This document shows, in pieces, positions 14,712-39,921 of a stretch of 64,000 nucleotides of DNA. The notes under the pieces are model-generated. The model was not told the DNA's origin, searched no databases, and worked only from the letters and a program-made list of their open reading frames with translations. A program made the translations under genes and the position numbers. The stretch covers positions 18,842 to 82,841 of the forward strand of contig JBAYGS010000005.1 of the NCBI GenBank assembly GCA_041666545.1. The letters are read 5' to 3'. Within the stretch, counting starts at the first letter, position 1. Each line of letters starts with the position of its first letter. The stretch comes from Minisyncoccota bacterium (lineage in GTDB: Bacteria > Patescibacteriota > Minisyncoccia > Phycocordibacterales > JBAYGS01).

Positions 14712-14981
14712 CTAAGGAGTAATGACTTGTTCGTAGTCAGCAATCAATGACTTAACTTGATCTTTCAGTTCTTGATCGGCCTCATCAGTCAGTCTCTCCG
14801 CTCTGGCTTTCGCCTCCGTGAGCATAATCCGAGCTTTAGAAAAATCATCCAGTGAACGGCCTTCAGCAATCGCTTCAGAAATAGCAGCAAAAATCTCCCC
14901 AAATTCAGCTTTGGTCTCCAAACCTTCAGGTTTTACTAAATCGTCAAATCTTTCCATGGGATTATTTTTTAAATCTGCCAA
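14712..14981 (-). CDS. Hypothetical small acidic helical protein overlapping the hicA 3' end
   Basis: 89-aa ORF. An internal Met at 14957 avoids most of the overlap. No family was recognised. Confidence 0.3.
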   Translation of the reverse strand: MADLKNNPMERFDDLVKPEGLETKAEFGEIFAAISEAIAEGRSLDDFSKARIMLTEAKARAERLTDEADQELKDQVKSLIADYEQVITP

Positions 14982-15159
14982 TTTCCAGCCCTAAATCTTT
15001 GCAGATTTTAGAAACTAGAAAATCATTTATTTCTCGATGTCTCGGAACGGTCGAAATCTTATTATTATCCAAGTTTCTAAAGACTGAATGCTTTTTGCCT
15101 TCGCGGACCAAATGGCAATGGCCTTGACGCAAGTACAAAATTAAATCGCGCCGCTTCAT
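14962..15159 (-). CDS. hicA: HicA-family mRNA interferase toxin
   Basis: MKRRDLILYLRQGHCHLVREGKKHSVFRN...TVPRHREINDFLVSKICKDLGL matches the HicA/YcfA-like consensus. Confidence 0.75.
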   Translation of the reverse strand: MKRRDLILYLRQGHCHLVREGKKHSVFRNLDNNKISTVPRHREINDFLVSKICKDLGLEIGRFKK

Positions 15160-15162
15160 TAC

Positions 15163-15387
15163 CTAGCGAGCAAGACTGACAGAGAACAGCTCTCGTGAAA
15201 AACCTCTCGACTTTGATGAAATAATTTTTCTATTTTCAGCCAAAACTAAAAGTGCCGCTTCTTTCAGATTTTCCAAAGCTTCTTTTTTGGTTCGGCCCTG
15301 AGTATTGATGCCCGGGATTTCTTCCACCCATGCAACCACCCACTTACCGCTTTTTTTATAAACAGCTGTAAATTCTCTGTTTGTCAT
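15163..15387 (-). CDS. hicB: HicB-family antitoxin (UPF0150 N-terminal domain only)
   Basis: FTAVYKKSGKWVVAWVEEIPGINTQGRTKKEALENLKEAALLVL matches the HicB N-terminal fold. It is 4 nt upstream of hicA. Confidence 0.7.
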   Translation of the reverse strand: MTNREFTAVYKKSGKWVVAWVEEIPGINTQGRTKKEALENLKEAALLVLAENRKIISSKSRGFSRELFSVSLAR

Positions 15388-15449
15388 GAACAGATGATAT
15401 CAAAAATAAAGCTTTCAATCAAACCGGAATTAGCCGGTTTTGAAGAAGC

Positions 15450-16220
15450 CTATGAAGTCAAAATCTCCGGGCCGTTTTCGGTAATTACCACCGTGTGTTC
15501 AAAGTGAGCGCTCCGCGAGCCGTCAGCAGTTTTGTAGGTATAGCCGTCACGACCAAGCATCACTTCGGCCGTTCCTTCATTCAACATCGGCTCAATCGCA
15601 ATCACGAGACCGGGACGCATAATTGGACCCTGGGCCTGCATCTTAAAGTTCGGCACATAAGGATCTTCGTGGACCTGATAACCGACACCGTGACCGGAAA
15701 GAGTCTCGACAATGCCAAAATGCTTACCTTTCACAAATTTTTCAATCGCGGTACCAATTTCCCCGACTCGCTTGCCTGATTGCGCCGCCGCGATACCGAT
15801 ACTCAAGGCCTGTTCGGTAGTTTTTAACAACCTCTTAGCCGCCGGATCAACTTCTCCTACCGGCACCGTAATCGCCATATCAGTAAAAAGTCCTTTATGT
15901 TTAAGACCGGCATCCAAGCTCACAATATCCCCATCTTCAAGACTTCGGTCTCTTTCATTTGGAATACCATGAACAACTTCGTCATTTACGGAGACACAAA
16001 GAGAAGCCGGGTAAGGTCGACTCGCGCCCCACGGCTGGTAGTTTAGGAAAGCCGGTGAATCACCGTTTTGAACCATCAGTTTGTGAGCAAAGGTGTTTAA
16101 ATCTTTGACTTTGACTCCTGGAGCTACCTGCTTGGCAGTTTCGTGCAGGATAAAAGCCAGGCGCTTCCCACCCTCCCGCAAAATCGCAATTTCAGCCTCG
16201 GTTTTAATCTTAATTCTCAA
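15450..16220 (-). CDS. map: Methionine aminopeptidase type I
   Basis: 256 aa, canonical in sequence and position (secY-adk-map). Confidence 0.9.
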   Translation of the reverse strand: MRIKIKTEAEIAILREGGKRLAFILHETAKQVAPGVKVKDLNTFAHKLMVQNGDSPAFLNYQPWGASRPYPASLCVSVNDEVVHGIPNERDRSLEDGDIVSLDAGLKHKGLFTDMAITVPVGEVDPAAKRLLKTTEQALSIGIAAAQSGKRVGEIGTAIEKFVKGKHFGIVETLSGHGVGYQVHEDPYVPNFKMQAQGPIMRPGLVIAIEPMLNEGTAEVMLGRDGYTYKTADGSRSAHFEHTVVITENGPEILTS

Positions 16221-16229
16221 ATTTTTGAG

Positions 16230-16820
16230 TTAAACTTTTAAGTCAAGCCTATTTACTATCTCCGCCTGAACATCTGCGATCGTCTGCTCGCCATTAATAT
16301 CCAAAAAATTATAGTCTTGGTGACTTTGATAATATTTAACTACCGGCATCACTTCACTTTCAAACCAATCCAAACGAGCTTTGATATCATCGGCATTATC
16401 ATCGATTCTTTTCCTCGCCAAAAGGCGATCTTCGGCCCACTTTCGAGAAACATTGATATAAATCACATAGGGTTTGACCCTTTTATAGAAACCGAAAATC
16501 GAATGAAGTGCGCCAGCCTCATGAAGTCGGCGCGGGGTGCCATCAATCAGCAAGTGTTCGGTGTTTTTAAATTTGGTCGAAAGAATCTTGGCCCACATAT
16601 AGACCGAGAGAAATTCCGGCTGTAAACCGCCATCGTCATAAATCTGCTTGGAAATTTTTTGAGTCGTGGTATCCCCCTTAATAAATTCCCGAAATTCGGC
16701 CCCACTCTCCAAATGAAAAACTTCCGTTTCCGGATTTTGTTTTTTTAAATATTCGCCAAGCAATTCGACTTGAGTACCTTTGCCACAGCCGGAACGGCCG
16801 ATGAAGATGAAGGAATGCAT
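16230..16820 (-). CDS. adk: Adenylate kinase-like nucleoside monophosphate kinase
   Basis: P-loop GRSGCGKGTQ corresponds to GPPGAGKGTQ. It sits in the secY-adk-map position. Confidence 0.75.
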   Translation of the reverse strand: MHSFIFIGRSGCGKGTQVELLGEYLKKQNPETEVFHLESGAEFREFIKGDTTTQKISKQIYDDGGLQPEFLSVYMWAKILSTKFKNTEHLLIDGTPRRLHEAGALHSIFGFYKRVKPYVIYINVSRKWAEDRLLARKRIDDNADDIKARLDWFESEVMPVVKYYQSHQDYNFLDINGEQTIADVQAEIVNRLDLKV

Positions 16821-17017
16821 GAATTAGTTTGTAGTTAGCAGTGGGTAGTGAGTAGTTAATGGAGACATAATAACAAGAAACTGGAGACTTAAATAGGACT
16901 TGACTTTTTGCCGATATTATGATACACTCAAAGGCAGTAAAGTCCTTTAGCATTTTAGTGCACAGAAACTCAACAACCTACCCGCCAAGCGGGTTACAGA
17001 AATCGGAGGAAATCAAT

Positions 17018-17503
17018 ATGACTAACTATGTGGTAATTACGACGATCGTCGGTAAGATCCTAGCACTTATTGGTATCGGCCTCATTTTTAAGGCGGTAAT
17101 CCGCGAAGAGAACAGCATCAGGATGGCCGGCTTGTTCTTTGCTTCTGGGATCATTTTGCTTCTATGCTCGGCGGCCGGGTCCAAAAACGTTAATCTGGCC
17201 AAAAGTGATCTGCCGGCAGATTACAAACTCGAGGTTAACTCGGAGTACCGGGGAGCTGGCAATGTTCTACAATCCCCGACCAACATTGCCGACGGAATCG
17301 GCCTGGGGGTAGTGATCATCCACAGCTCGGACAGAAAGACCGATCTTGGCCAGACACCTGTCCTCATGAACGCCGGACTCAAGGTTGGCGAGCCGATTGT
17401 AATGAAAGCCGTCGAGGTGGTGGTTAATAACCACCCGATATACTTCATGTTCGTGGCGGAAAAGCTCCCCACCAACAATGTCGCTGCGGCTACGGCCAAG
17501 TGA
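17018..17503 (+). CDS. Hypothetical membrane protein on the opposite strand inside the spc operon
   Basis: ATG at 17018 is preceded by the canonical SD GGAGGA. Two TM helices. The terminator CCGCGCGAGCTTCTCCGGAAGCGAGCGCGGTTTTT lies at about 17510-17548. Confidence 0.5.
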   Translation: MTNYVVITTIVGKILALIGIGLIFKAVIREENSIRMAGLFFASGIILLLCSAAGSKNVNLAKSDLPADYKLEVNSEYRGAGNVLQSPTNIADGIGLGVVIIHSSDRKTDLGQTPVLMNAGLKVGEPIVMKAVEVVVNNHPIYFMFVAEKLPTNNVAAATAK

Positions 17504-17600
17504 CCGATTCACATCCCGCGCGAGCTTCTCCGGAAGCGAGCGCGGTTTTTAATTGACCAAAGGCCCCAAATTGGCTAAATTAGTGTGAGAAAGGGCAAAA

Positions 17601-17825
17601 ATGATTGATTATTTGGGAATTGGCTGCTTCCTTGGTTGCTTGATATTCGTCTACAAACTGACCGAGGCCAAAAACCGAAAATGGGAAAGCTTGTACGCGA
17701 GCGTAGCTGGCCTCATGTTCATCCTAACTCTTTTTTTGGTCTTCGAATCAGTGACCGAGCATCAAAAAAGAGATGAGATGAGAGCCAAGGCCAAAACCGC
17801 AAACCATCTCACAATAAAAAGATAG
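17601..17825 (+). CDS. Hypothetical small two-TM protein
   Basis: 74-aa ORF followed by the terminator GCAGTACCGCCGAAGTCCCAAAGGGACTTCGGCGGTTTTTCTC at about 17826-17868. Confidence 0.4.
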   Translation: MIDYLGIGCFLGCLIFVYKLTEAKNRKWESLYASVAGLMFILTLFLVFESVTEHQKRDEMRAKAKTANHLTIKR

Positions 17826-17878
17826 AGCAGTACCGCCGAAGTCCCAAAGGGACTTCGGCGGTTTTTCTCTATCTCAAA

Positions 17879-17960
17879 CTACCCACTACTCACTACTCAC
17901 TACAAATCCCGATGTCAGAAGTCGGGACCCCGACCTTTGTCTGACAAAGCGTCGGGGCTT
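17879..17960. repeat. Composite repeat: an ACTAC-rich leader repeat (CTACCCACTACTCACTACTCACTAC) plus a GC-rich nested palindrome element (CCCGAtgtcaga-aGTCGGGACCCCGAC-c-tttgtctgacaaaGCGTCGGGG)
   Basis: The GC-palindrome family also occurs at 27033-27090, 52843-52885 (inside recJ) and 55350-55400. Confidence 0.6.
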
Positions 17961-17963: not shown

Positions 17964-19250
17964 CTAGTACTCCCTCATCGAAATCTGGGCATCAATTTTC
18001 TTAATCAAATCAAGAGCCACGGAGACCACAATCAAAAGCGCCGTACCTCCAATAGCCAAAGCGGAAATTCCGGTAAAGGCTCGAACAGCAAGTGGTAAAA
18101 CAGCAATTACACCCAAGAAGACAGCACCGACCAGCGTAATTCTGGTGACAATTTTAGCCAAATATTCGGTCGTCGATTGGCCCGGTCTGACACCTGGAAT
18201 AAAAGCTCCACCCTTCTGGAGATTGGTCGCGATTGATTCCGGCTCAAAAGTGACAGCCGTGTAGAAATAAGTGAAAAGAACAACCAAAATAAAATACAGG
18301 AGAGCGTAAAGCCAAACTTGTGAGAGCAGTTGAACCATAAAAGTCGAAATTGAGACGACAATCGGGTTGCCGGTATTAGCCAAGAAGGTGAAAATCATTT
18401 GCGGAAACAAAAGAATTGAAAGGGCAAAAATAATCGGAATCACACCGCCTTGGTTGATTCGCAAAGGCAAGTAAGTGGAAAGCCCGCCGTACATCTTCAT
18501 CCCCCGTACCCGCTTGGCATAGGTAATCGGCACCGGCCGCTCGGCTTCAGTAATAATCACCACACCCACAATCACCAGGAGTCCGATAATTAAGAATGCC
18601 AAATAGACTGGGATTTGTGAGACTTCAAAAGTAAAAGATAGTTGGGAAATTGCGACCGGTACTCTGGCCACGATACCGGCAAAAATGATGAGAGAAACAC
18701 CATTACCGATACCAAATTCAGTAATCAGCTCACCGAGCCAGGTCAAAAGGATTGAGCCACCGACAATTACCATGATGTTAGTCACGAATCCGAAAGTTTC
18801 AAGACCTGGCACAACCCCTTGTTTCTCCAAGAGAAGAAGAAAACCAAAAGCCTGGATTAAAGCCAGAGGCACTGTAAGTAGCCTTGAGTATTGGGCAAAA
18901 CGCTTGCGGCCAGCCTCCCCTTCTTCATGGTAAATCGCCTTCAGCTTCGGTGACATAATCGTCAAAAGCTGCATGATGATTGAAGCGGTAATGTAAGGGC
19001 CGACACCAAGCATCACAATCGACAAAGTCGATAGACCACCGCCAGAAAATACATCCAAAAGACCCAAAAATTGATTGCCCGAGAAGAACTGTTCGAGCTT
19101 CAAAGCATCAACACCCGGGATTGGGATCACGCTAAATAGTCGGAAAACTGCCAAAGCCACCAAAGTAAAAAGAATCCTTTGGCGCAAAATCTTATCTTGG
19201 AGGACTAATTTGGTTTTGGCTAGAAAGTTGTTCATTTTGGCACTCGACAC
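17964..19250 (-). CDS. secY: Preprotein translocase SecY
   Basis: 428-aa ten-TM protein, canonical in sequence and position. Confidence 0.9.
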   Translation of the reverse strand: MSSAKMNNFLAKTKLVLQDKILRQRILFTLVALAVFRLFSVIPIPGVDALKLEQFFSGNQFLGLLDVFSGGGLSTLSIVMLGVGPYITASIIMQLLTIMSPKLKAIYHEEGEAGRKRFAQYSRLLTVPLALIQAFGFLLLLEKQGVVPGLETFGFVTNIMVIVGGSILLTWLGELITEFGIGNGVSLIIFAGIVARVPVAISQLSFTFEVSQIPVYLAFLIIGLLVIVGVVIITEAERPVPITYAKRVRGMKMYGGLSTYLPLRINQGGVIPIIFALSILLFPQMIFTFLANTGNPIVVSISTFMVQLLSQVWLYALLYFILVVLFTYFYTAVTFEPESIATNLQKGGAFIPGVRPGQSTTEYLAKIVTRITLVGAVFLGVIAVLPLAVRAFTGISALAIGGTALLIVVSVALDLIKKIDAQISMREY

Positions 19251-19333
19251 TAATCCACGAATGAGGACGAATTACACGAATTTGGGTTTGAATTTATTTG
19301 TGTCATTCGCTTAAATTCGTAATTGGTGTCGTG

Positions 19334-19774
19334 TTAGACTATTTTGCCTCCCGCCTTTTCAATCTTGGCCTTGGCACTCCCTGAAAAGGCGCAACCGGAA
19401 ATATTCAAGGCTTTGGTCAATTCGCCATCACCTAGGATTTTGATTTTTGGCGACTTGCCGGATTTCAAAGCAATCAAACCAGAGGCTAAAATTTCTTTCG
19501 GAGTAACTGCGACGCCGGCCGAGAAAAACTTATCAAGTGAGCCGACATTGACCGGCACAAAAGCCACTTGGATACCAACATTGCTGTTTCGGCCACGACC
19601 GCGCAGTTTCGGAATACGCTTAATCATATCGCGAATTTCCGGGCGAACCTTGGCGCCGGCGCGGGCGGTCTGACCCTTACCACCGTGGCCGGAAGTCTTG
19701 CCCCGCTTACCGCCTCGGCCGATTTGCTGCCAATTTTTACGCTTAGTATGTCGTTTTAAATTATGGAGTTGCAT
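19334..19774 (-). CDS. rplO: 50S ribosomal protein L15
   Basis: MQLHNLKRHTKRKNWQQIGRGGKRGKTSGHGGKGQ is the L15 signature. Confidence 0.85.
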   Translation of the reverse strand: MQLHNLKRHTKRKNWQQIGRGGKRGKTSGHGGKGQTARAGAKVRPEIRDMIKRIPKLRGRGRNSNVGIQVAFVPVNVGSLDKFFSAGVAVTPKEILASGLIALKSGKSPKIKILGDGELTKALNISGCAFSGSAKAKIEKAGGKIV

Positions 19775-19779
19775 AAAAT

Positions 19780-20428
19780 TTATTTACTGACTTTAGCACT
19801 TTCGAACTTCTTCAAAATCATTTTGCGTCGGCTCAATTCCGACAAAGCTTTCATGGCGGCGCGAGCATTATTCAGTCGATTTTTGCTACCAGAGAGCAAC
19901 TTGGCGTTAACATCTTTCAAACCGCAAAGCTCGATAACATTTCGAATAGAAGTACCGGCAACCATTCCCTTACCTCGAGCCGGCATAATCATCACTCGCG
20001 AGCTTGCATACTTAGCGGCAACTTCAAAAGGAATCGAGGAGCTCTTTGTCATCGGGACAGTAATTAAATTTTTCTTGGCTTCACGATTAGCCTTTTCAAT
20101 CGCCAAGGCAGTATCGCCGCCTTTACCCAATCCGACACCAACCTGACCCTTGCGATTACCGATAACCATGGCAACACTGAAAGCAAAGCGTCTACCACCG
20201 GCCACGGTTCGGGAAACGCGTCTAATATCAATGATTTTCTGATCAAATTCCGGCTTTACTCTCTCCGGCCTGGTACCACCACGGCGCGGACCACCTCGTC
20301 TTTCCGGACGATTACCAAAACCGCCCCTCACCGGTCGAGCATTTCTTGAATCGGCAGCCGGTAGAGCTCCGGGAGTAGTCGGGGCAACTTTCGCCACATC
20401 TGCATTTTGTTTGGTATCGTCTTTCATA
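19780..20428 (-). CDS. rpsE: 30S ribosomal protein S5 (the likely start is the Met at 20428; the ORF track extends it upstream through the intergenic repeat)
   Basis: ...IIDIRRVSRTVAGGRRFAFSVAMVIGNRKGQVGVGLGKG... is canonical S5. No L30 gene lies between S5 and L15. Confidence 0.85.
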
Positions 20429-20430
20429 AT

Positions 20431-20470
20431 GTTTTTATTCGTGTGCCCTATTTGCAAGGGTTCTTAACTT
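20431..20470. repeat. Intergenic repeat TTATTCGTGTGCCCTATTtGcAAGGGTTCTtAACT between rplR and rpsE
   Basis: Six members of this family: 14537, 14621, 20431, 21443, 22241 (inverted) and 25956. Confidence 0.65.
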
Positions 20471-20491
20471 AAAATTTCGATTACAATCTCA

Positions 20492-20839
20492 TTAAAACAC
20501 TAAACCGCCTTCTCTGGCACTATCGGCCAAGACTTTGATTTTGCCGGTGTAAATAAAGCCTCCTCGGTCAAAGACGACAGTCTTAATCTTCTTGGCCATG
20601 GCCAATTTGGCCAACTCTAAACCAACAGCCTTAGCTTTTTCCAAAACGGTTTTACCCGGAGCTTTCATTGAGGAAGCGGCTACCAAAGTCTTACCGGTAG
20701 CATCATCAATCAATTGGGCGTAGATATATTTATTGGAACGAAAAACCGAAAAGCGCGGTCTGGCTTCGGTGCCAAAAATCTTGGCCCTAATTTTCTTATG
20801 GCGTCGATCTCTTTTTAGTTTTGATGTTGGCTTTTTCAT
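20492..20839 (-). CDS. rplR: 50S ribosomal protein L18
   Basis: Position in the spc operon and sequence. Confidence 0.85.
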
Positions 20840-20896
20840 TGAATTTTATCTTTGGCTTTCATACCTTATACCATATACCTAATACTATATACCCCT

Positions 20897-21430
20897 CTAG
20901 GCTGCTTTCTTGCCTTCCTTCCTACGAATGACTTCCTTCTCATATCTCATACCCTTACCCTTATAAGGCTCGGCTTTCTTCAAATCGCGGACTTTGGCGG
21001 CAAACTGACCGACCAATTCCTTATCAATACCTGAAACAGTGATCAAGTTCTTCTCGGCAGTCACTTTTAGACCCTCCGGAATGTCCATCTCCACCGGGTG
21101 AGAAAAACCAAGACTAAAAACCATTTTCTTGCCTTTGACTTCAGATTTGAAACCGATACCTTCCAAAATCAACTTTTTCTCAAAAGCCTTGTTGACGCCG
21201 TTAATCATATTGTTGACATGCGAAGAAGCGGTTCCCCACATCGCACTCACCTCAACGCCGGTGCGCTTTGGAGTAAGGATAACCTGATTATTATCGATAG
21301 CAATGCCGATAATCGGTCGGAAGTTTCTTGAGAGCTCGCCCAAAGGACCCTTGACCTTCACAACATTGTTCAAAACCGACACTGTCGTGCCGTTTGGGAT
21401 TGCAATTGGTTTTTTGCCGATTCTGGACAT
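20897..21430 (-). CDS. rplF: 50S ribosomal protein L6
   Basis: MSRIGKKPIAIPNGTTVSV... is canonical L6. Confidence 0.9.
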   Translation of the reverse strand: MSRIGKKPIAIPNGTTVSVLNNVVKVKGPLGELSRNFRPIIGIAIDNNQVILTPKRTGVEVSAMWGTASSHVNNMINGVNKAFEKKLILEGIGFKSEVKGKKMVFSLGFSHPVEMDIPEGLKVTAEKNLITVSGIDKELVGQFAAKVRDLKKAEPYKGKGMRYEKEVIRRKEGKKAA

Positions 21431-21442
21431 GATGATAATTAA

Positions 21443-21480
21443 TTTATTCGTGTGCCCTATTCGTAAGGGTTCTCAACTAT
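21443..21480. repeat. Intergenic repeat TTATTCGTGTGCCCTATTCGTAAGGGTTCTCAACT between rpsH and rplF
   Basis: Consensus copy of the six-member family. It abuts the rpsH stop and lies 13 nt from the rplF start. Confidence 0.65.
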
Positions 21481-21869
21481 TACCAGATTTTAAATAAAAC
21501 TTCGCCACCGACTTTTTCTTTCTTGGCCTCCTTATCGGTCAAAATTCCTTTTGGGGTCGAGAGCACGATCAAGCCTAAACCGCTCTTGAAAGATCGGATT
21601 TCTTTGGCGCCCTGGTAAACGCGCTTGGACGGTTTGGAGACACGGGCCACATCGTTGATTCGAGGTGTCTTACCTTCGGCATATTCGACTTCAGCCTCCA
21701 AAATCTTGTGGTTATTCTTGCGCTTCTTGGCAATTGATTTGAGAAAACCGTTCTTAACCAAAATATCTGCAATTGACTCCTTAATCGCCGAATGAGGTAC
21801 CACAACACTTCCCCGACCTGCGAGGCCGGCATTCTTAACTTTGATTAGAAAATCAGCGATTGGATCCAT
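21480..21869 (-). CDS. rpsH: 30S ribosomal protein S8
   Basis: MDPIADFLIKVKNAG... is canonical S8. Confidence 0.9.
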   Translation of the reverse strand: MDPIADFLIKVKNAGLAGRGSVVVPHSAIKESIADILVKNGFLKSIAKKRKNNHKILEAEVEYAEGKTPRINDVARVSKPSKRVYQGAKEIRSFKSGLGLIVLSTPKGILTDKEAKKEKVGGEVLFKIW

Positions 21870-21987
21870 AAAATAATTTAAAATTGAAAGGTCAAAATGG
21901 AAAATTGCAATTTAAAATCTAAAATTAGATTCTGAAAATTATTCAATTTTGCATTGTCATTTTTCATTTTGAGATTTACATTTTCCA
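21870..21987. repeat. AT-rich roughly 118-bp repeat between rpsZ and rpsH that ends with the exact 30-mer AATTTTTCATTTTGAGATTTACATTTTCCA
   Basis: The 30-mer is identical at 29349-29378. Related copies lie at 39925-39990, 61842-61897 and in the 5' leader of the four-helix-bundle gene (62264-62290). Confidence 0.6.
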
Positions 21988-22173
21988 CTACCATGATGAC
22001 TTCTTGATTCCCGGAATCATGCCTTCGTTGGCATACTCGCGGAAGCAAATACGGCAAAGGTCGAAGTCTCGCATATAGCCGCGCTTGCGACCACAGCGGA
22101 AACAACGGTTAGTAGCCCGAGTGGAAAATTTCGGTTTCTTTAACGATCTTGCTACTACTGATGTTTTTGCCAT
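21988..22173 (-). CDS. rpsZ: 30S ribosomal protein S14, type Z (zinc-binding)
   Basis: 61 aa with [20 protein letters not shown]. Confidence 0.9.
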
Positions 22174-22240
22174 AATAAATTAAAAAAGCTTGCAAAAGCT
22201 TGTCCGCGTATACTAGCAAACCAAGAAGAAGAATGCAAGG

Positions 22241-22280
22241 CAGGTTGAGAACCCTTACGAATAGGGCACACGAATAGGCC
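22241..22280. repeat. Inverted-orientation copy of the TTATTCGTGTGCCCTATTCGTAAGGGTTCTCAAC family, followed by a GGTATA-rich segment (22292-22325)
   Basis: GGTTGAGAACCCTTACGAATAGGGCACACGAATAGG. Confidence 0.6.
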
Positions 22281-22531
22281 AGCCGGCAAAAGTATAGGTA
22301 TAAGGTATAAGTATAGGTATGGGAAATGGGTCCAAAAGTCAAAAAGCACGGGAGAAGACAAGATAAAAGGCGCGCAACTGCGTTGCGCGCCTTGACTCTC
22401 ACCCTATATTCCTAGAAAGCTCATCAGCAACCAAGGCCTCGATAAATCGGCACAAGCCAAGCAGACAAAAACGGCCTACTGGCCGTTTTTGTCTGTCCTT
22501 ATTCCTAAATCATGAATCTTTATTCCTAATT

Positions 22532-32061: not shown

Positions 32062-32340
32062 ATGTACTCTCTTAAACCCACGGCAAAATACAGAAAATCC
32101 ATTAGGAAACTGGCAATGTCTGGCCGATTTAGGATCGGAGACTTAGACAAAATTCTCAACCTGCTTGCTTCTGGTAAAACACTTGAACCGAAGTATCGAA
32201 GCCACCCGCTTAACGGAGAATATGCCGGTTGTTTTGAGTGTCATGTGAAAAGTGACCTACTGCTTATTTACGAAATCGACAAATCAGAACGAGAATTAAC
32301 TATTATTGATATCGGTAGCCATTCGGATTTATTTGAGTAG
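32062..32340 (+). CDS. yafQ: YafQ-family toxin (RelE/ParE superfamily mRNA interferase)
   Basis: KYRSHPLNGEYAGCFECHVKSDLLLIYEIDKSERELTIIDIGSHSDLF matches YafQ. It lies 9 nt after dinJ. A terminator (AAAAACCGCCGAAAGGCGGTTTTTTG) follows at 32341-32372. Confidence 0.7.
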   Translation: MYSLKPTAKYRKSIRKLAMSGRFRIGDLDKILNLLASGKTLEPKYRSHPLNGEYAGCFECHVKSDLLLIYEIDKSERELTIIDIGSHSDLFE

Positions 32341-32450
32341 CAAAAAACCGCCGAAAGGCGGTTTTTTGATCTTACCGCCCCGACGAAATTAAGAAATTTG
32401 TCGGGGTTAAGAAAATTGGCCCCTTACTTTTCAGTAAGAGGCTCAATTTT

Positions 32451-32843
32451 CTACAACATTTTCACATCAATATTCACGCCAGATGGGAGCGAAAGATTGG
32501 TCAAAGCTTCGATAACTTTCGGAGCCGGATTAATGATATCAATCAATCGCTTGTGAACTCGCATCTCAAATTGTTCTCGCGCATTTTTGTAGACGAAAGC
32601 TGAACGGTTGACCGTGTACTTCTTAATCTCAGTCGGCAATGGTACCGGGCCAAGCATTTCGGCATCGAAACGCAAAGCGGTGTCCATGATTTGTTTAATC
32701 GAGGCATCTAGAACCTTGTGTTCGTAGGCCCTGACCCGAATTCGAAGCTTTCCAATGCCCTCTTCTTTGTCCTTCTTGGCAACTGCCTTTTTGACAGCTT
32801 TAGGCTTGGCGACTTTTTCGGTTGTTTTAGTAGTTTTAGGCAT
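32451..32843 (-). CDS. rpsJ: 30S ribosomal protein S10 with a Lys-rich N-terminal extension
   Basis: ...GKLRIRVRAYEHKVLDASIKQIMDTA...VPLPTEIKKYTVNRS... is the S10 core. Confidence 0.85.
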   Translation of the reverse strand: MPKTTKTTEKVAKPKAVKKAVAKKDKEEGIGKLRIRVRAYEHKVLDASIKQIMDTALRFDAEMLGPVPLPTEIKKYTVNRSAFVYKNAREQFEMRVHKRLIDIINPAPKVIEALTNLSLPSGVNIDVKML

Positions 32844-32879
32844 GATTTTAACTAATAACTTTCGCTATTAGTCCGCTTA

Positions 32880-34067
32880 TTAAGCAATGATCTTGGTGAC
32901 CACGCCGGCGCCGACAGTCTTACCACCCTCGCGGATAGCAAAGCGCTGTTTGGCTTCAAGAGCGACCGGAGCAACCAACTTGACAGTGAAGGTGACAGTG
33001 TCGCCTGGCATAACCATTTCAACACCTTCTTTCAAGGTCACCTCACCGGTGACATCAGTGGTTCGCACATAGAATTGCGGTTTGTAGCCTTTGAAGAAAG
33101 GAGTGTGTCGGCCACCTTCCTCCTTTTTCAAGATGTAAACTTCAGCCTCGAAGTCAGTGTGAGGAGTGACAGAACCCGGCTTGGCCAAGACCTGACCACG
33201 GTGCACATCTTCCTTCTTAGTACCTCGCAAGAGTACTCCGGCGTTGTCGCCAGCCATACCTTCAGCAAGAGATTTGTTGAACATTTCAATACCAGTGACG
33301 GCAGTCTTGGCGGTCGGCTTGATACCGACGATCTCAACTTCCTCACCGACTTTGACCTGGCCTCTTTCGATACGACCGGTGACAACAGTACCTCGGCCTT
33401 CGATTGAGAAGATGTCTTCGATTGGCATCAAGAATGGTTTATCGATTTCTCGAACTGGCAACGGGATGTAGGTATCGAGAGTCTTAACCAATTCCAAGAT
33501 GGCCTTTGACCACTCATCGTCAGTGCCAGTAGCTTCCAAAGCTTTAAGACCGGAACCGCGAATAATTGGTGAGTCATCATAGCCGTGCTTCTTCAAAAGA
33601 TCGCGAACTTCCTCTTCAACCAAGTCGATCAACTCCTTATCAGGAACCATATCGCACTTGTTTAGGAAAACGATGATTTTTGGCACACCGACTTGCTTGG
33701 CCAAAAGAATGTGCTCTCGGGTTTGAGGCATCACGCCGTCAGTTGCGGCTACGACCAAGATAGCGCCGTCCATTTGAGCGGCACCGGTGATCATGTTTTT
33801 AATGTAGTCAGCGTGGCCCGGGGCGTCGATGTGGGCGTAGTGACGAGTTTCTGACTCGTATTCAGAGTGGTGAATCGAAATGGTAATACCGCGAGCCTTT
33901 TCTTCAGGGCTCTTGTCCAAGTCACCGACTGAAAGAGTCTTCTTGGCTAGACCTTTTGCGTGAAGTACGCGACTGATAGCCGCAGTCAAAGTACTTTTGC
34001 CGTGGTCAACGTGGCCGATAGTACCAACGTTAACGTGTGGCTTTGAGCGATCAAATGCTTCTGCCAT
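32880..34067 (-). CDS. tuf: Elongation factor Tu (start taken at [11 protein letters not shown])
   Basis: Canonical EF-Tu throughout: [22 protein letters not shown]. Confidence 0.95.
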
Positions 34068-34264
34068 AATATTTTTAGTTTTGCCTCCCAAAATTAAGCG
34101 CGCGAGAACGTCTACTTAATTTTAAGAATAAAAACCTTAGATTAATAATTAATAAATTTCCCTGTTTGATTAACCTCAAACAAAACAACCGGCGAACCGG
34201 TAAGGATGCGTAAAACGCGTCTGGGTATAATAACAAAGAGCTTAAGAAGATGCAATGGTCGAGC

Positions 34265-35503
34265 TTAAATAGACCCCTTGGAGGTTAAGAGACGCAGAGT
34301 CTCCGGACCGATTCCGCCAAATTCAGCCTTTAAACCGTTGGCTAATTGAAAGGCTACTAGGGCCTTTTCTGTGCAACTCAAGAAATTTCCAGAAATGGGG
34401 CAGTCATGCTTGTCCTTCCCTGCTGGTGGGTAAAAGAGTTTGGTCGCCAGAGCCGCTTGGAGCGAAAGAACAGCCGGACTCCACTTTGTCCCACTCTCGA
34501 CACTCGTAAGCTCTGGAACCAGAAGCACGGAAGGTGGCAGACTGGCAAATCTGTCAGTTTTGAAGAAATCATTGAGCCCTAGATAAGTCTGGTAGGCCAA
34601 ATCCTTGATTGCCAGACTGCGAACCTTAGCATCTAGAAATCTCGGCTCATAGATATAGCCATACTCGATTAAAATTCCGGCCGGATCAAGCGTGTTGAAA
34701 GCACCGACAGCAATCAATTCCTGATCCGAGACAATCCCCCGATCTTCCTTTGGTAAATTGCTCCTCGCATAATAATTATTCAAGTGGTTAAAAATTTTTT
34801 GAGCCACGGCCTGACTGGCTTTTGAATTTGAATATTGACCTTCCGGTACATAGACCGCAAAGCCTTCATATTCACCCGGTGCCGACTTTGGCCGGCCGGC
34901 ATAATCATTGAAATGGATGCTCAAAACCAAATCGGCATAAGATTGATTGGCCCAAAGATTGACACCATAAAGCCTCGTGGCCGTTTCCGAGTCAACCGAA
35001 TTATGATAAACCCCACCTAAATTGCTACTAATTAGACCTTCGTCAACCAGTTGGCCCATTTCAGATTTTTTCCGGTTCAAAAAACCCGAGATGACATCCT
35101 TTTGACTGACTAGAAACTGGGAAAAAGCCGGATTGTAGCCATTTTTGTCTCTGATTAGAATAATTTCAAATTCTTTATCGTCTGCAAACATGGCCGACAA
35201 ATCTTGAGCCAATTCCAAATTCATATCGGCCTCGCGAACACCCTTAAATTCGGTCCCACCAGAATTGTTGTCATGGCCGGGAACAATTATGATTCGAATC
35301 GGCCGGGCGCCCGCCTTAGATTTGTCATACCTAGCAAACAAAGCCTCTTCGGTAATACTGTCCGAGAAAAAAACCGAAGCCAAAAAGTTTTTCGGATTAA
35401 GAGTCGACACTAACTTACCAAAACTGCCGGGCGACAAAGACCAAAACAGAAAAAATAAAGCGGCGGCCATGACCAAAAATGCGACAGACCGTTTTAATTT
35501 CAT
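34265..35503 (-). CDS. Secreted or membrane-anchored N-acetylmuramoyl-L-alanine amidase (Amidase_3-like) with a C-terminal peptidoglycan-binding domain
   Basis: N-terminal signal/TM, then IIVPGHDNNSGG, which is GHGG-like for Amidase_3. A C-terminal ...TEKALVAFQLANGLKAEFGGIGPETLRLL matches the PG_binding_1 motif. Confidence 0.65.
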   Translation of the reverse strand: MKLKRSVAFLVMAAALFFLFWSLSPGSFGKLVSTLNPKNFLASVFFSDSITEEALFARYDKSKAGARPIRIIIVPGHDNNSGGTEFKGVREADMNLELAQDLSAMFADDKEFEIILIRDKNGYNPAFSQFLVSQKDVISGFLNRKKSEMGQLVDEGLISSNLGGVYHNSVDSETATRLYGVNLWANQSYADLVLSIHFNDYAGRPKSAPGEYEGFAVYVPEGQYSNSKASQAVAQKIFNHLNNYYARSNLPKEDRGIVSDQELIAVGAFNTLDPAGILIEYGYIYEPRFLDAKVRSLAIKDLAYQTYLGLNDFFKTDRFASLPPSVLLVPELTSVESGTKWSPAVLSLQAALATKLFYPPAGKDKHDCPISGNFLSCTEKALVAFQLANGLKAEFGGIGPETLRLLTSKGSI

Positions 35504-35611
35504 TTTTAAATGATACCACGCTACCAGAAAGCCAAAAACCGCCTCTCGGCGGCTTTTGGCTTTCTGGATTGTGCGCTTGAATCTTGAATCTAAATTCTTG
35601 AATCATTCGAC

Positions 35612-37753
35612 CTACTTTCTTGACTCCACAATCGTCTTCTCAACGTTTGGAGGTACGACTTCATAATGATCGAATTCCATCATGGCGTTGCCCCTACCTT
35701 CGGTCATCGAGCGAAGTTGAGTCGTATAGCCGAACATTTCAGAAAGTGGCACTTTGGCCTTAATAGCCTTGTTCATTCCCCTCTCCTCGAAGCCTTCAAT
35801 CTGACCTCGTTTGGAATTCAAACTGCCAGTGACATCGCCCATAAATTTCTCCGGAACAATGACTTCAACTTTCATGACTGGCTCAAGAATGACTGGACGA
35901 GCTCGTTTGGCGGCTTCTTGGAAAGCCTGTGAGGCGGCAATCTTGTAAGCAATTTCCGATGAGTCGACATCGTGGTAAGAACCGAAAGTCAGTTCGCAAG
36001 AAATATTGACCATCTTGAAACCGGCCACAATTCCGCGATCCATCGCCTCATGGACACCCTTTTCAACCGCCGGAATAAATTCTTGAGGAATCACACCACC
36101 TTTAATCGAGTCGATAAATTCAAAGTCATCATAGCGTTTAACATTTTTCGGAATCTTCTTACCTTCTGGTACCGGTTCCATCGGCTTGAGAGTAATTTTG
36201 ACATGACCATATTGACCCTTACCACCGGACTGCTTGATGTATTTATGTTCGGCTTCGGCAGTACCCATAATGGTTTCTCGATAAGCTACTTGAGGTTTGC
36301 CGACATTGGCATCGACAGTAAATTCTCGTTTCATTCGATCAACCATGATTTCCAAGTGCAATTCGCCCATTCCCGAGATAATCGTCTCGCCAGTTTCGGT
36401 GTTGGAGCTGATTTTAAAGGTTGGATCTTCATCAGAAAGTTTCTTCAAGGCCATACCCATCTTTTCTTGGTCGGCTTTGGTCTTTGGTTCAATACGAAGT
36501 GAAACCACCGGATCAACGAATTTAATCGGATCAAGAATAATCGGACTATTTTCATCGCAGAAAGTGTGAGAAGTCTTAGCGTTTTTTAGACCGACAGCGG
36601 CGGCAATTTCACCGGCAAAAACTTTTTTAACTTCCTCTCTTTTATCAGCTTGCAAGCGAACGATTCGGCCCAAGCGCTCTTTCTCACCTGTGGTGGAATT
36701 GTAAAGATAGGTACCCGCTTCAATGGTGCCGGAATAGACTCGGAAGAAAGTTAGTTGACCGACGAAAGGATCGTTTTGCAGCTTGAAGGCCAGAGCAGAA
36801 AAAGGCTCAGTGTCAGAGGCATGGCGATAAATCTCCTCGCCAGTATTTGGATCAAGGCCGTGAATCGGCGGCATATCGAGAGGTGAAGGTAGGTAGTCGA
36901 CAACAGCATCAAGTACCAACTGCACACCTTTGTTCTTCAAGGCCGAACCGGTAAGCACCGGCACAAATTTGTTTTCAATCGTGGCCTTGCGGATGACTTT
37001 TTTCAAATCTTCGACTGCCGGAATTTTACCCTCAAGATAGGCGGACATCATGGCATCATCGTGTTCAACCGCCTTTTCAAGCAAAATGTGATGGTATTTT
37101 TCCGCTTCCGCTTTGTACTCCTCTGGAATTTCCGCGATACGAATATCTTTGCCCATTTCGCCTTCGAAATAGTAGGCCTTCATAGTCAAAAGATCGATGA
37201 TACCGGCAAAATGTTCTTCCAAACCGATTGGAATCTGCATCCGAACAGCACTTTTGGTCAGACGGTCGAGAATCGAAGCGTAGGAGCGCTCGAAAGAAGC
37301 GCCCATTCGGTCTAGTTTGTTGATGAAGCAGATTCGAGGCACCTTGCCGTCGTCCGCATAACGCCAGTTGGTCTCTGACTGAGGCTCAACACCGGCCACG
37401 CCGTCAAAAACCACCACGGCACCGTCGAGGACTCGGAGTGAACGCTTAACTTCGACAGTAAAGTCGATGTGTCCAGGGGTGTCGATAATATTGAAACGCT
37501 GTTTTTGAGAAATATCCTTCCCCATGTAGCTCGGGTTCCAAAAACAGGTAATGGCGGCGGCGGTAATCGTGATACCTCGCTCTCTCTCCTGCTCCATCCA
37601 GTCAGTGACAGTGTTGCCTTCGTGCACTTCGCCGATTTTATGGCTTTCGCCGGTGTAGTACAAAACGCGCTCGGAGGTAGTGGTTTTGCCGGCATCAATG
37701 TGGGCAATGATACCGAAATTGCGAACCTTCTCTAATGGATAATCACGATTCAT
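35612..37753 (-). CDS. fusA: Elongation factor G
   Basis: 713 aa, canonical: AHIDAGKTTT, DTPGHIDF. Confidence 0.95.
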   Translation of the reverse strand: MNRDYPLEKVRNFGIIAHIDAGKTTTSERVLYYTGESHKIGEVHEGNTVTDWMEQERERGITITAAAITCFWNPSYMGKDISQKQRFNIIDTPGHIDFTVEVKRSLRVLDGAVVVFDGVAGVEPQSETNWRYADDGKVPRICFINKLDRMGASFERSYASILDRLTKSAVRMQIPIGLEEHFAGIIDLLTMKAYYFEGEMGKDIRIAEIPEEYKAEAEKYHHILLEKAVEHDDAMMSAYLEGKIPAVEDLKKVIRKATIENKFVPVLTGSALKNKGVQLVLDAVVDYLPSPLDMPPIHGLDPNTGEEIYRHASDTEPFSALAFKLQNDPFVGQLTFFRVYSGTIEAGTYLYNSTTGEKERLGRIVRLQADKREEVKKVFAGEIAAAVGLKNAKTSHTFCDENSPIILDPIKFVDPVVSLRIEPKTKADQEKMGMALKKLSDEDPTFKISSNTETGETIISGMGELHLEIMVDRMKREFTVDANVGKPQVAYRETIMGTAEAEHKYIKQSGGKGQYGHVKITLKPMEPVPEGKKIPKNVKRYDDFEFIDSIKGGVIPQEFIPAVEKGVHEAMDRGIVAGFKMVNISCELTFGSYHDVDSSEIAYKIAASQAFQEAAKRARPVILEPVMKVEVIVPEKFMGDVTGSLNSKRGQIEGFEERGMNKAIKAKVPLSEMFGYTTQLRSMTEGRGNAMMEFDHYEVVPPNVEKTIVESRK

Positions 37754-37924: not shown

Positions 37925-38248
37925 TCACAAATGAACAGCCCGATCCTTGAAGGCTGACTCAAAAATGAGCCGACCTAGACTGCCACCAAACTCGAGCCCC
38001 TCTCCGGCGGTTATCGCCCCAGAAGCAACCAGCTTGTGGAGCTCCTTGGACAGAATCACTGTCACCTCTTCTGCCAAAGTGACAGCACTCTCGGCTTGAC
38101 ACATTTTGCGAACCTTGGCGACCAATCCTTTGACCGGATCAACCGCCTCGGCGCCAAGAACCATCTGCCTCAGAAGTTGGTCCGCGATTTCCTGAAACCT
38201 TTTTCGTTCCATAGCATTCCTTTTGTTTTTGCTTGTCGATGCAGGCAA
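37925..38248 (-). CDS. Hypothetical protein (107 aa), GC-rich
   Basis: ORF only. It sits between fusA and rpsG. Confidence 0.3.
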   Translation of the reverse strand: MPASTSKNKRNAMERKRFQEIADQLLRQMVLGAEAVDPVKGLVAKVRKMCQAESAVTLAEEVTVILSKELHKLVASGAITAGEGLEFGGSLGRLIFESAFKDRAVHL

Positions 38249-38250
38249 CC

Positions 38251-38628
38251 CTAGGAGATGCCCTCGTAGGCCAGTCCGCAGACCATTCTGACATCATCAC
38301 CGCTACCGAGCAGTGTTTTAATGGCGAAACCGACAAGACCTACGGCTGTGCCAAAACACATCGCCGCTACAAGGGCGACCAGTGGCACCGCAAAGGACAC
38401 GGTCCAATCGGCAGATGTCTGACAATTAACGGCAACATACCCGGCGAGCCATCGACTAACGATGAAGAGCGTGCCCGCCGACAGTAGACAGACTGTGGTT
38501 GCCAAGGGTCGCCGCCACCACAGATTGTCCTTTCCGCTCACTACATCGGCCCAGCCGCGAATTATCGCGACCATCACCATAATGCACATGACGGTGACAG
38601 CAACCGGTTTGATCATTTCGATGTTCAT
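38251..38628 (-). CDS. Hypothetical membrane protein (125 aa, three or four TM helices), GC-rich
   Basis: Hydrophobic ORF 2 nt upstream of 37925..38248. Confidence 0.4.
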   Translation of the reverse strand: MNIEMIKPVAVTVMCIMVMVAIIRGWADVVSGKDNLWWRRPLATTVCLLSAGTLFIVSRWLAGYVAVNCQTSADWTVSFAVPLVALVAAMCFGTAVGLVGFAIKTLLGSGDDVRMVCGLAYEGIS

Positions 38629-38744
38629 GCTTTTGCCTTTCTCTTTGTTTTGTTTGTTTTCTGACTTTCTATGTGTATTATATCAAATTTGAGCCGACTT
38701 GTCAATCACTATTCCCGCCTTATTTATAGCCCTAAAATGAGGCC

Positions 38745-38790
38745 ACAAGAGTAAAACCGCCCAGGGGCGGTTTTACTCTGTTTTTATTTA
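38745..38790. terminator. Terminator hairpin AAAACCGCCCAGGGGCGGTTTT with T-runs, downstream of rpsG; it splits the str operon
   Basis: Perfect GC hairpin and T-tract on the minus strand after the rpsG stop. Confidence 0.55.
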
Positions 38791-38952
38791 GTTTTGAGGA
38801 AAGTTCGAGCCGCGTCAGGAATTTTTGCTCAAGCTTCTTATCGATGACGAGTGCCGACTAATTTCAAAAAGACTAGCGAGTGCGACGGCACGAGCTCGAG
38901 GAAAATTTCAGCAGAAATTTATCCGTGCTTTTTGAAATTAGTCAAAGCGAGT

Positions 38953-39423
38953 TTACCAGGCGAAGTGAGCGAAGGCCTTGTTCGCCTCTGCCATCTTGTG
39001 AGTGTTTTCTCTCTTCTTAACCGCCTCACCTTCGTTTTTAGATGCCAAAATGATTTCTTCAGCTAATTTTTCAGCCATTGGTTTGCCCTTTTTGGAGCGA
39101 GCCGCATCAACAATCCATTTCATACCCATGGCCTGTCGTCTCTCCGGACGAACTTCTCGAGGCACTTGGTAGTTGGCACCACCGACTCGTCGTGAGCGAA
39201 CCTCCATCAAAGGTGAAGTATTCTTTAAGGCAACTTCAAAAAGCTCGAGTGGGTTTTCGGTCTTGGCCTTCTCCTTCAAGCTGGCGAGTGCGCCATAAAC
39301 CACCTTGCGGGCGGTCACTTTCTTGCCGTCAAACATCAAATAATTCACCAACTTGGAAACTTTTGGCGAGCTATAAACTAAATCTGGAGCAATAGGCTTT
39401 TTGGTTTTAAGTTTTCTACGCAT
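38953..39423 (-). CDS. rpsG: 30S ribosomal protein S7
   Basis: Canonical S7. Confidence 0.9.
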   Translation of the reverse strand: MRRKLKTKKPIAPDLVYSSPKVSKLVNYLMFDGKKVTARKVVYGALASLKEKAKTENPLELFEVALKNTSPLMEVRSRRVGGANYQVPREVRPERRQAMGMKWIVDAARSKKGKPMAEKLAEEIILASKNEGEAVKKRENTHKMAEANKAFAHFAW

Positions 39424-39507
39424 GTTTTAGATTGATTTAAGAATTATGATTCACGATTCAAGAATTTAAGACTTTTCATTCCTGAATCTTGAATCCTGAA
39501 TCTGACT

Positions 39508-39921
39508 TTAGGCTTTCTTCGGTCTCTTGGTACCGTACTGACTGCGACCCTTGCGACGAGTCTCGACGCCGGTGGTATCGAGGACGCCACGGACAACCTG
39601 ATAGCGCAGACCGACATCCTTAACGCGACCACCACGAAGCATTACCACAGAGTGCTCTTGAAGGGCGTGGCCCATACCTGGAATATAAGCGGTGACCTCC
39701 AAACCGTTGGTCAAGCGAACGCGAGCAATTTTTCGAATAGCGGAGTTAGGCTTTTTCGGAGTCTTGGTGGTCACTTTAGTACAGACACCTCGTTTGAAAG
39801 GCGAAGGGAAAAAGACCGGTCGGTTTTTAACAGTATTGAAAGAACGCAAAAGTGCCACCGACTTTGGTTTGCGGTAGGTCTTGGTCCGTCGTCTTTTAAC
39901 TAGTTGATTGATGGTTGGCAC
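39508..39921 (-). CDS. rpsL: 30S ribosomal protein S12 (apparent GTG start)
   Basis: [11 protein letters not shown]...PNSAIRK... is canonical S12. Confidence 0.9.

Follow-up and report, generated by a model that had tools for sequence, protein, structure and literature searches.

The subject of this report is the str-S10-spc superoperon, a ribosomal protein (r-protein) gene cluster, in a 64-kb stretch of contig JBAYGS010000005.1 (hereafter the window). The listing of open reading frames (ORFs) and Pfam matches identify 26 translation genes on the minus strand, from rpsL (39921-39508) to map (16220-15450), in the canonical order rpsL, rpsG, fusA, tuf, rpsJ, rplC, rplD, rplW, rplB, rpsS, rplV, rpsC, rplP, rpmC, rpsQ, rplN, rplX, rplE, rpsN, rpsH, rplF, rplR, rpsE, rplO, secY, adk, map. 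The gene order of a single str-S10-spc superoperon is thus retained on one strand, as the original prediction had stated. The contiguity expected of such a superoperon is broken by five interruptions of 0.8-2.5 kb, at the internal junctions rpsG/fusA, fusA/tuf, rpsJ/rplC, rplB/rpsS and secY/adk, and by one 359-bp gap between rplE and rpsN.

The rpsN gene encodes the 61-aa form of its protein. The rpsE and rplO genes are only 5 bp apart, which leaves no room for rpmD (L30), and rpmD is therefore absent. Absence of L30 is a trait of the Candidate Phyla Radiation (CPR). The closest L2 proteins among GTDB genomes and JGI metagenomes are 61-73% identical and come from Nomura-, Taylor- and Kaiserbacteria and from Paceibacterota metagenome-assembled genomes (MAGs); without exception the best L2 matches are to Patescibacteria MAGs, and the NCBI name on the window's own proteins is 'Candidatus Paceibacterota bacterium'. 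Judged by the L2 matches, the missing L30 and the NCBI labels, the source is an uncultured Candidatus Paceibacterota (CPR/Patescibacteria) bacterium. Genome and metagenome scans gave no relative above 73% L2 identity, and exact look-ups returned the same population only.

Inserted genes and their expression signals

The positions of the seven gene modules into which the cluster can be divided, of the inserts and of their putative expression signals are collected in Table 1.

Table 1. Modules, inserts and predicted signals of the interrupted cluster, in window coordinates (SD, Shine-Dalgarno sequence; promoter scores are matches out of 12)
Feature	Position	Strand	Remarks
Module 1: rpsL, rpsG	38953-39921	-	rpsL 39508-39921, rpsG 38953-39423; Pfam Ribosom_S12_S23, Ribosomal_S7; G-free leaders, no SD
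Module 2: fusA	35612-37753	-	Pfam EF-G domains
Module 3: tuf, rpsJ	32451-34091	-	tuf 32880-34067 (or 34091), rpsJ 32451-32843; Pfam
Module 4: rplC, rplD, rplW, rplB	27115-29989	-	Pfam
Module 5: rpsS, rplV, rpsC, rplP, rpmC, rpsQ, rplN, rplX, rplE	22532-26334	-	Pfam
Module 6: rpsN, rpsH, rplF, rplR, rpsE, rplO, secY	17964-22173	-	Pfam; no rpmD
Module 7: adk, map	15450-16820	-	Pfam ADK, Peptidase_M24
Terminator after rpsG	38748-38779	bidirectional	palindromic hairpin, 14-pair stem AAAACCGCCC…GGGCGGTTTT
rpsG/fusA insert, two ORFs	37925-38705	-	coding-like GC1>GC2<GC3 pattern
Promoter, rpsG/fusA insert	38705-38677	-	TTGACA-17-TATAAT with TG, 12/12
Terminator after fusA	35531-35557		hairpin AAAAACCGCCTCTCGGCGGCTTTT
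fusA/tuf insert, N-acetylmuramoyl-L-alanine amidase	34265-35503	-	Pfam Amidase_3 1.4e-16, PG_binding_1 1.7e-05
Terminator-like hairpin after amidase	34201-34188	-	
Convergent terminators between yafQ and rpsJ 3' ends	32339-32442		32339-32368 palindromic; 32442-32419 minus strand
rpsJ/rplC insert, DinJ-YafQ module	31742-32340	+	dinJ 31786-32052, yafQ 32062-32340; Pfam and PDB sequence matches
Promoter, dinJ-yafQ	31752-31779	+	TTGACA-16-TATACT, 11/12
rpsJ/rplC insert, 262-aa ORF	30891-31717	+	ORF 30891-31679; SD AAAGG; terminator 31694-31717
rpsJ/rplC insert, 150-aa orphan ORF	30233-30825	-	ORF 30309-30761; promoter, SD AAAGGAAA, terminator; no family match
Promoter, 150-aa ORF	30825-30797	-	TTGACA-17-TAGTAT, 10/12
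Terminator after 150-aa ORF	30261-30233	-	
Spacer upstream of rplC, called a transposable element	29990-30336		single imperfect 20-nt inverted repeat
rplB/rpsS insert, 123-aa orphan ORF	26517-27016	+	ORF 26597-26968; promoter, SD GGAG, terminator
Promoter, rplB/rpsS insert	26517-26546	+	TTGACA-18-TAAAAT with TG, 11/12
Terminator after 123-aa ORF	26991-27016	+	11 pairs, 9 GC
rplE/rpsN expanded junction, 359 bp	22174-22531		two strong terminators; two repeat-family copies (22244-22276, 22292-22317)
Terminators in rplE/rpsN gap	22461-22496 and 22393-22367		strong hairpins
secY/adk insert	16900-17862	+	161-aa orphan ORF and 74-aa ORF; promoters, SD, terminators
Promoter, secY/adk insert	16900-16928	+	TTGACT-17-TACACT
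Bidirectional terminator after 74-aa ORF	17832-17862		
hicB-like gene, hicA	14962-15422	-	hicB-like 15163-15387 (74 aa), hicA 14962-15159 (65 aa); HicA_toxin Pfam
Promoter, hicB-hicA	15422-15394	-	TTGATT-17-TATCAT with TG

The rpsG/fusA insert contains two minus-strand ORFs that account for the two anonymous genes predicted at 37925-38628, the first (38251-38628) encoding 125 aa (or 121 aa) with several hydrophobic stretches and the second (37925-38248) 107 aa (or 95 aa). The amidase that had been proposed between tuf and fusA is borne out by its Pfam domains; its product has an N-terminal hydrophobic segment, and the PG_binding_1 domain is C-terminal. The secY/adk insert holds the opposite-strand genes that had been placed at 16919-17825, and both are small membrane-type ORFs. 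A 161-aa ORF (17018-17503) with hydrophobic N-terminal segments and the SD sequence GGAGG is followed by a hairpin (17511-17548); since GGAGG precedes position 17018, this start is preferred over a 194-aa reading from 16919, which is less likely. The 74-aa ORF behind it (17601-17825) has two hydrophobic segments and a promoter-like site at 17553-17581. Between rplB and rpsS the predicted gene with its own promoter and SD is present as a 123-aa ORF. In word-indexed searches of 5.8 billion proteins this ORF had no homologue but itself, as was also the case for the 161-aa ORF, and its AlphaFold2 (AF2) model from the single sequence is uninformative (predicted local distance difference test, pLDDT, 45).

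The rpsJ/rplC junction carries a cassette for which two unknown genes, DinJ-YafQ and a miniature inverted-repeat transposable element (MITE) had been claimed; the four genes are there, and the MITE is not upheld (see below). The 262-aa protein has one homologue by word-indexed search and a family of 37 cluster representatives by exhaustive HMMER search. Its AF2 model is all-alpha with a pLDDT of 92, with no fold match in the PDB at E <= 0.001 and no Pfam family, and its homologues adjoin murG/M23 or PilM genes in contexts unrelated to r-protein clusters. The family to which it belongs is uncharacterised, with members of ~250-290 aa that share a conserved LLTDF..NGGI motif. Overall, seven unknown ORFs have no match in Pfam, PHROGs or NCBIfam, and six ORFs are orphans or near-orphans besides dinJ, yafQ, hicA and amidase-type confirmed genes; the 90%-identity clusters of the 150-aa ORF and of both rpsG/fusA ORFs are confined to this population.

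The dinJ-yafQ pair is the better defined of two toxin-antitoxin (TA) pairs. YafQ matches YafQ_toxin (PF15738) at 1.4e-27 and 96 bits and its partner RelB/DinJ (PF04221) at 1.4e-12 and 48 bits; among PDB sequences YafQ matches HP0892 (4nrn) at 7.7e-17 and E. coli YafQ at 6.6e-06, and the alignment to 4nrn/HP0892 retains the HPL, ECH and GSHS(D/E)LF motifs with the conserved His and C-terminal motif. Like the DinJ-YafQ systems of E. coli and of H. pylori (HP0892/HP0894), the pair consists of a RelB/DinJ antitoxin gene and, 9 nt behind it, a toxin gene of the YafQ family (92 aa), it gives strong profile and PDB sequence matches, and its promoter is embedded in an inverted repeat, here a 22-nt repeat (31742-31785) that spans both the -35 and -10 boxes. 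Unlike the known pairs it lies inside an r-protein cluster, convergent against rpsJ, its transcript is probably leaderless, and its toxin activity is predicted. YafQ is described as a ribosome-dependent mRNase.

A HicAB pair had been reported to follow map and to count among at least six insertions, two of them TA pairs. The pair is present but terminal, so that the inserts amount to five internal ones and one terminal neighbour. None of the alpha-operon genes infA, rpmJ, rpsM and rpsK occurs in the 64-kb window or in the relatives (L017 being the sole relative with sequence beyond map), which places hicBA at the end of the cluster rather than within it. The HicA protein scores above the Pfam cut-off (HicA_toxin PF07927, 7e-08, 32.9 bits against a 27-bit threshold) and lies beside a small HicB-like gene, as expected of type II HicAB systems. 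Here the antitoxin gene precedes the toxin gene, and the 74-aa HicB-like protein, which has no room for the C-terminal DNA-binding domain, matches HicB only weakly (PHROG HicB-like 3.8e-05, PDB HicB E = 0.06, and sub-threshold Pfam scores of 23 bits for DUF7387 and 17 bits for UPF0150); NCBI names it 'HicB family antitoxin'. Automatic gene calls on the source contig omit hicA (65 aa, 14962-15159) as well as rpsN (61 aa, 21988-22173) despite Pfam support for both.

The 359-bp gap between rplE and rpsN had been overlooked. Its sole ORF (97 aa) has neither a Pfam match nor a gene call and is no credible gene, and the spacer may be what is left of a lost cassette or may give rise to a small plus-strand transcript.

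Promoters were scored at the sequence level against the sigma-70-type consensus of the -35 and -10 boxes. The four best matches of the region (10-12 of 12) all lie upstream of inserted genes, and GGAG(G) or AAAGG precedes the start of the inserted ORFs by 5-10 nt. At four genes 6 nt separate the end of a -10-like box from the ATG, namely dinJ (31774-31788), hicB (15394-15390), the amidase gene (TGgTATCAT; 35503-35515) and a gene for a 912-aa DUF8128/HerA-like protein (14500-14512), and their mRNAs are therefore probably leaderless. Strong hairpin terminators are found 3' of rpsG, fusA, rpsJ, rplE and secY, whereas rplB is followed by a palindromic hairpin whose T tract on the rplB strand is weak; hairpins of 10 or more pairs are all located at interrupted junctions or in the rplE/rpsN gap. 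A GC-rich CCCCGAC…GTCGGGG hairpin recurs 3' of genes, both in the cluster (27038-27086 after rplB, 17920-17956 after secY) and elsewhere (52827-52897, 55338-55409), and looks like an element of the repetitive extragenic palindrome type at 3' ends.

The 912-aa protein (11762-14500), encoded directly downstream of the cluster, is a DUF8128/HerA-DUF87/TraG-D_C-like ATPase that resembles a coupling protein or a HerA-type NTPase. At the gathering threshold Rfam found a tmRNA gene alone in the whole window (1476-1859, 119 bits), adjoining smpB (1963-2340), and nothing in the cluster; ARAGORN gave no predictions, so that the tmRNA too is missing from its output.

Leaders without Shine-Dalgarno sequences and intergenic repeats

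The r-protein genes of the window have no SD sequence and only 0-2 G within 20 nt 5' of the start, so the reported contrast with the inserts, with their SD sequences, promoters and terminators, exists at the level of sequence signals. It does not serve as a sign of foreign origin. An SD-like 4-mer is found upstream of 4% of 383 cluster genes in relatives (L003-L018, L083-L100) versus 89% of 1017 genes in non-CPR loci, with a mean of 2.7 G against 6.8 G over the 20 nt 5' of the start, and other resident genes of the window also have weak SD motifs. By these counts the absence of SD sequences on cluster genes is a lineage-wide property and not a contrast made by insertion.

The intergenic repeats are real and form families of 25-120 nt directly 5' of start codons, for example AACTAC(C/T)…, CTTCCAAACTT…, CATTTTGAGATTT… and GTTGAGAACCCTTACGAATAGGGCACACGAATA on the coding strand. 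They precede rplD, rpsH, rpsE, rplF, rplV, rplN, rplE and rplB, all at uninterrupted junctions, and also occur outside the cluster, as upstream of L20 and NDK. The r-protein, adk, NDK and L20 genes have no SD and share almost G-free leaders drawn from few reused repeat families (19780-29989, 5937-6281, 10377-10985). The rplE/rpsN spacer holds a reversed copy of the GTTGAGAACCC… leader element, and its GTATAGGTATAAGG element is also found 5' of the promoter of the rplB/rpsS insert (26465-26490). Taken together, the leaders suggest SD-independent initiation of highly expressed genes across these Paceibacteria. SD-poor translation initiation occurs in lineages such as the Bacteroidota and Cyanobacteria, where highly expressed genes including those for r-proteins likewise lack SD sequences and have unstructured, G-poor leaders. 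The window differs in that few repeated families of 25-120 nt are reused and accessory genes keep weak SD motifs.

Junctions in relatives and in other bacteria

The 26 genes were mapped in 160 loci fetched through L2, comprising 36 related loci (35 of them non-redundant and Paceibacteria-like) and 124 others, and a gap of at least 400 bp between consecutive cluster genes was counted as an interruption. In the 35 Paceibacteria-like loci 43 of 403 consecutive junctions are interrupted, and relatives with long loci have one to four interruptions each. These are concentrated at fusA/tuf (7/9), rplB/rpsS (14/23), rplE/rpsN (7/14), rpsG/fusA (3/7), secY/adk (3/8), rpsJ/rplC (5/17) and adk/map (1/3), with 3/305 at the other 19 junctions pooled, one of them spanning a run of N. 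The tuf/rpsJ junction is intact in all 16 cases, and those within rplC-rplD-rplW-rplB are uninterrupted save for one rplW/rplB gap in 31. With the window's five interrupted junctions taken as the prior set, the relatives are interrupted at 32 of 64 such junctions versus 11 of 339 elsewhere (Fisher p = 1.6e-20). The cluster is broken completely in some relatives, at rplB/rpsS (6), rpsJ/rplC (3), fusA/tuf (3), rplE/rpsN (1) and rplD/rplW (1); adk directly follows rplE in locus L017, and rpsL directly follows rplB in L092.

The other 124 loci, nearly all non-CPR, have 20 interruptions in 1889 junctions, 14 of them at tuf/rpsJ, the known str/S10 boundary. None lies at rplE/rpsN, and there is one each at rplB/rpsS and rpsJ/rplC, both in L031, which is titled Saccharibacteria and thus also CPR. 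The claim of unusual traffic within the cluster therefore holds with respect to bacteria outside the group but not as a peculiarity of this genome. As far as these comparisons go, interruption characterises the lineage, being unusual among bacteria at large but typical here, and does not reflect a one-off burst of insertion.

The cargo itself is not conserved: tblastn searches of the 36 related loci with the window's 12 cargo proteins gave no match at E < 0.01, and the inserts are lineage-specific, as the original prediction had it, rather than ancient and universal. Relatives carry instead guanylate kinase (three times), PemK/MazF (twice), MazE, YafQ, ParE, DUF2283, DAG kinase, pyrD/E/F, pilin, sortase, a T2SS ATPase, a response regulator and many unknowns. 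Judged from their ORFs, five relatives (L003, L009 twice, L016, L084, L099) have at least six TA-like pairs at these junctions. Some occupants are common to several relatives, among them guanylate kinase (gmk) at secY/adk in L007, L010 and L015, next to adk, a homologous 150/175-aa ORF at rplE/rpsN in L010 and L015, and two DUF3298 proteins, apparently those at rplB/rpsS in L007 and L091; this sharing means that some insertions are older ones, conserved at the level of sublineages. The synteny comparison that had been proposed as a check shows the same junctions interrupted in relatives, and with the nearest relatives at ~70% L2 identity the insertions are not finely dated. The compositional check is equivocal. 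The GC content at third codon positions is 0.47-0.65 in the orphans (at least 0.54 in five of six), 0.35-0.45 in the TA genes and ~0.49 in the r-protein genes, against 0.34-0.70 in the whole window, which fits a foreign origin and is no evidence for it.

A proposed modular cluster with permissive boundaries

It is proposed that the cluster in this lineage is not one superoperon but is made up of about seven modules in series, [rpsL-rpsG] [fusA] [tuf-rpsJ] [rplC-rplB] [rpsS-rplE] [rpsN-secY] [adk-map], with permissive boundaries at which cargo turns over and the cluster sometimes splits, and this is considered the probable explanation. Junctions within a module are tight and almost never disturbed, whereas those between modules are tight, expanded by unrelated genes or broken, depending on the relative. 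Five of the six internal boundaries here hold self-contained cassettes, each with its own putative sigma-70-type promoter, an SD or leaderless start and an intrinsic terminator. The predicted cargo consists of DinJ-YafQ, a secreted or membrane-anchored cell-wall amidase, a member of the all-alpha family and five small orphan genes, three of membrane type, with hicB-hicA at the cluster end. The module-leading genes fusA, tuf, rplC, rpsS, rpsN and adk would each be transcribable from a separate promoter, so that a terminator-bearing cassette upstream would not be lethal. The cargo may have come by ordinary horizontal transfer or illegitimate recombination and would persist where insertion is tolerated, a matter of tolerance and not of targeting, and TA modules may persist additionally through addiction. 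The short intergenic repeats would be SD-independent translation leaders of highly expressed genes and not mobile elements.

Several points weigh against the modular proposal. The consensus scan gave only 9-of-12 matches and no convincing promoter upstream of fusA, tuf, rplC, rpsS, rpsN and adk. Terminators at unoccupied permissive junctions in relatives are few (3 of 40 positive versus 0 of ~330 other junctions, a scan too weak to decide), hence the boundaries may not be pre-existing stops of transcription, and terminators may instead come in together with the inserted genes. The relatives were sampled via one protein, L2, and are not phylogenetically independent; at ~70% L2 identity they allow no fine dating, and direction, gain here or loss elsewhere, is inferred. 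Finally, the status of five cargo ORFs as putative genes rests on expression signals, ORF length and codon-position GC, as they have no homologue beyond the population or were searched only to 90%-identity clusters.

The last point bears on the alternative that the orphan ORFs are not genes and that the expanded junctions represent regulatory spacers or loci of non-coding RNAs in which ORFs occur by chance. The solitary status of the 123-aa and 161-aa ORFs would suit this, as would the restriction of three further orphans, which lack family matches, to population-level clusters, the low pLDDT of the 123-aa model and the relatively high GC content of the inserts. The ORFs are nevertheless each framed precisely by promoter, SD and terminator, their codon-position GC matches the coding pattern of resident genes, most were predicted by independent gene callers, Rfam detects nothing in the cluster, and the 262-aa ORF belongs to a 37-member family with a confident fold, all of which makes the alternative unlikely. 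Still less credible is an ancient fixed architecture, with inserts universal in the lineage, or an assembly artefact from a chimeric contig. No evidence was found in favour of either, the sublineage-level sharing of some cargo in relatives being the only related fact; no window cargo recurs in the 36 related loci, and three pipelines (ENA, Logan, JGI), each working on a different sample, assembled the same DNA (99.98-100% identical), with coverage of the inserts at rplB/rpsS, fusA/tuf and rpsG/fusA, so the architecture is not an assembly artefact.

The original prediction favoured intergenic repeats as insertion hot-spots. In the corresponding alternative, the repeats or a putative MITE at 29990-30340 would be recombination or transposition substrates directing foreign DNA into the cluster. 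There are arrangements of this kind in the window: inverted ACTAC-type copies flank the secY/adk insert (16825-16849, 17878-17902; pair I22), the GTATAGGTATAA element (family D9) occurs both upstream of the rplB/rpsS-insert promoter and in the empty rplE/rpsN gap, and a 20-nt inverted repeat (30010-30029/30317-30336, 17/20 matches) brackets 287 bp on the rplC side of the rpsJ/rplC insert. However, many uninterrupted junctions, and sites outside the cluster as well, have the repeat families directly before start codons, and Pfam and gene-call scans found no transposase, integrase or recombinase within or beside any insert. The supposed MITE has one arm inside the 150-aa ORF, self-BLAST found no second copy of 29990-30340 in the 64-kb window, and inspection of the sequence found no direct repeat flanking the arms that would mark a target-site duplication; by a rough estimate ~0.1 inverted repeats of 17/20 quality arise by chance in 2.6 kb, and a single one is not compelling. 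Targeting by repeats is accordingly regarded as improbable. Functional coupling is a further alternative, in which cargo is kept because it acts on translation, through mRNA interferases of the YafQ, HicA and MazF type or antisense read-through into rplB, secY and rpsJ. Three cassettes are indeed convergent on r-protein genes, the activity of YafQ would fit, and at least five relatives also have TA modules at these junctions, while the window has two; yet such modules are common in bacterial genomes generally, the convergent units are separated by strong bidirectional terminators, and most cargo, such as the amidase, membrane orphans, pyr genes, pilin, sortase and DAG kinase, is unrelated to translation, leaving coupling a doubtful explanation. 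A broader and somewhat speculative variant holds that the modules are independently expressed and their boundaries are landing sites shared across the Paceibacteria for autonomous cassettes, above all those for orphan membrane proteins and for TA pairs of the mRNA-interferase type. As non-neutral cargo, toxins acting on translation and cassettes in convergent or antisense orientation would then be retained because they modulate ribosome production in slow-growing, host-dependent cells, and the core genes would in parallel have switched to SD-independent, repeat-built leaders; there is only a small chance that this is correct.

The r-protein cluster is the textbook case of a gene order frozen by selection and a standard block for phylogenies of uncultured bacteria. 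Under the proposal of permissive module boundaries, a reproducible set of junctions in a large CPR class would map where co-transcription is and is not required in minimal genomes, and it would allow a test in nature of whether insertion loosens synteny and leads to later separation. Binning and marker-extraction pipelines that assume a contiguous r-protein block may split it or miss parts of it in CPR, and the r-protein genes of these organisms appear to be translated without SD sequences.

Literature searches found no description of such an interruption pattern in CPR. The closest parallel is in Gammaproteobacteria and Bacilli, where small groups of unrelated genes (tusDCB, bfd-bfr, nrdHEF, ilv-leu) have entered few junctions of the otherwise rigid cluster, with complete separation of the flanks in some descendants (Brandis 2021, PMC8046335). 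Insertion followed by breakage is also seen in the relatives studied here. TA modules and orphan genes are among the cargo here, whereas a text search of that article gave no match to 'toxin'. The examples given there lie mostly at operon boundaries (rpoBC/str, str/S10), whereas those described here fall inside the canonical str (rpsG/fusA/tuf), S10 (rplB/rpsS) and spc (rplE/rpsN, secY/adk) operons. Interruptions make up ~11% of junction observations here and ~1% in the sampled non-CPR loci, and are thus about ten times more frequent in this lineage.

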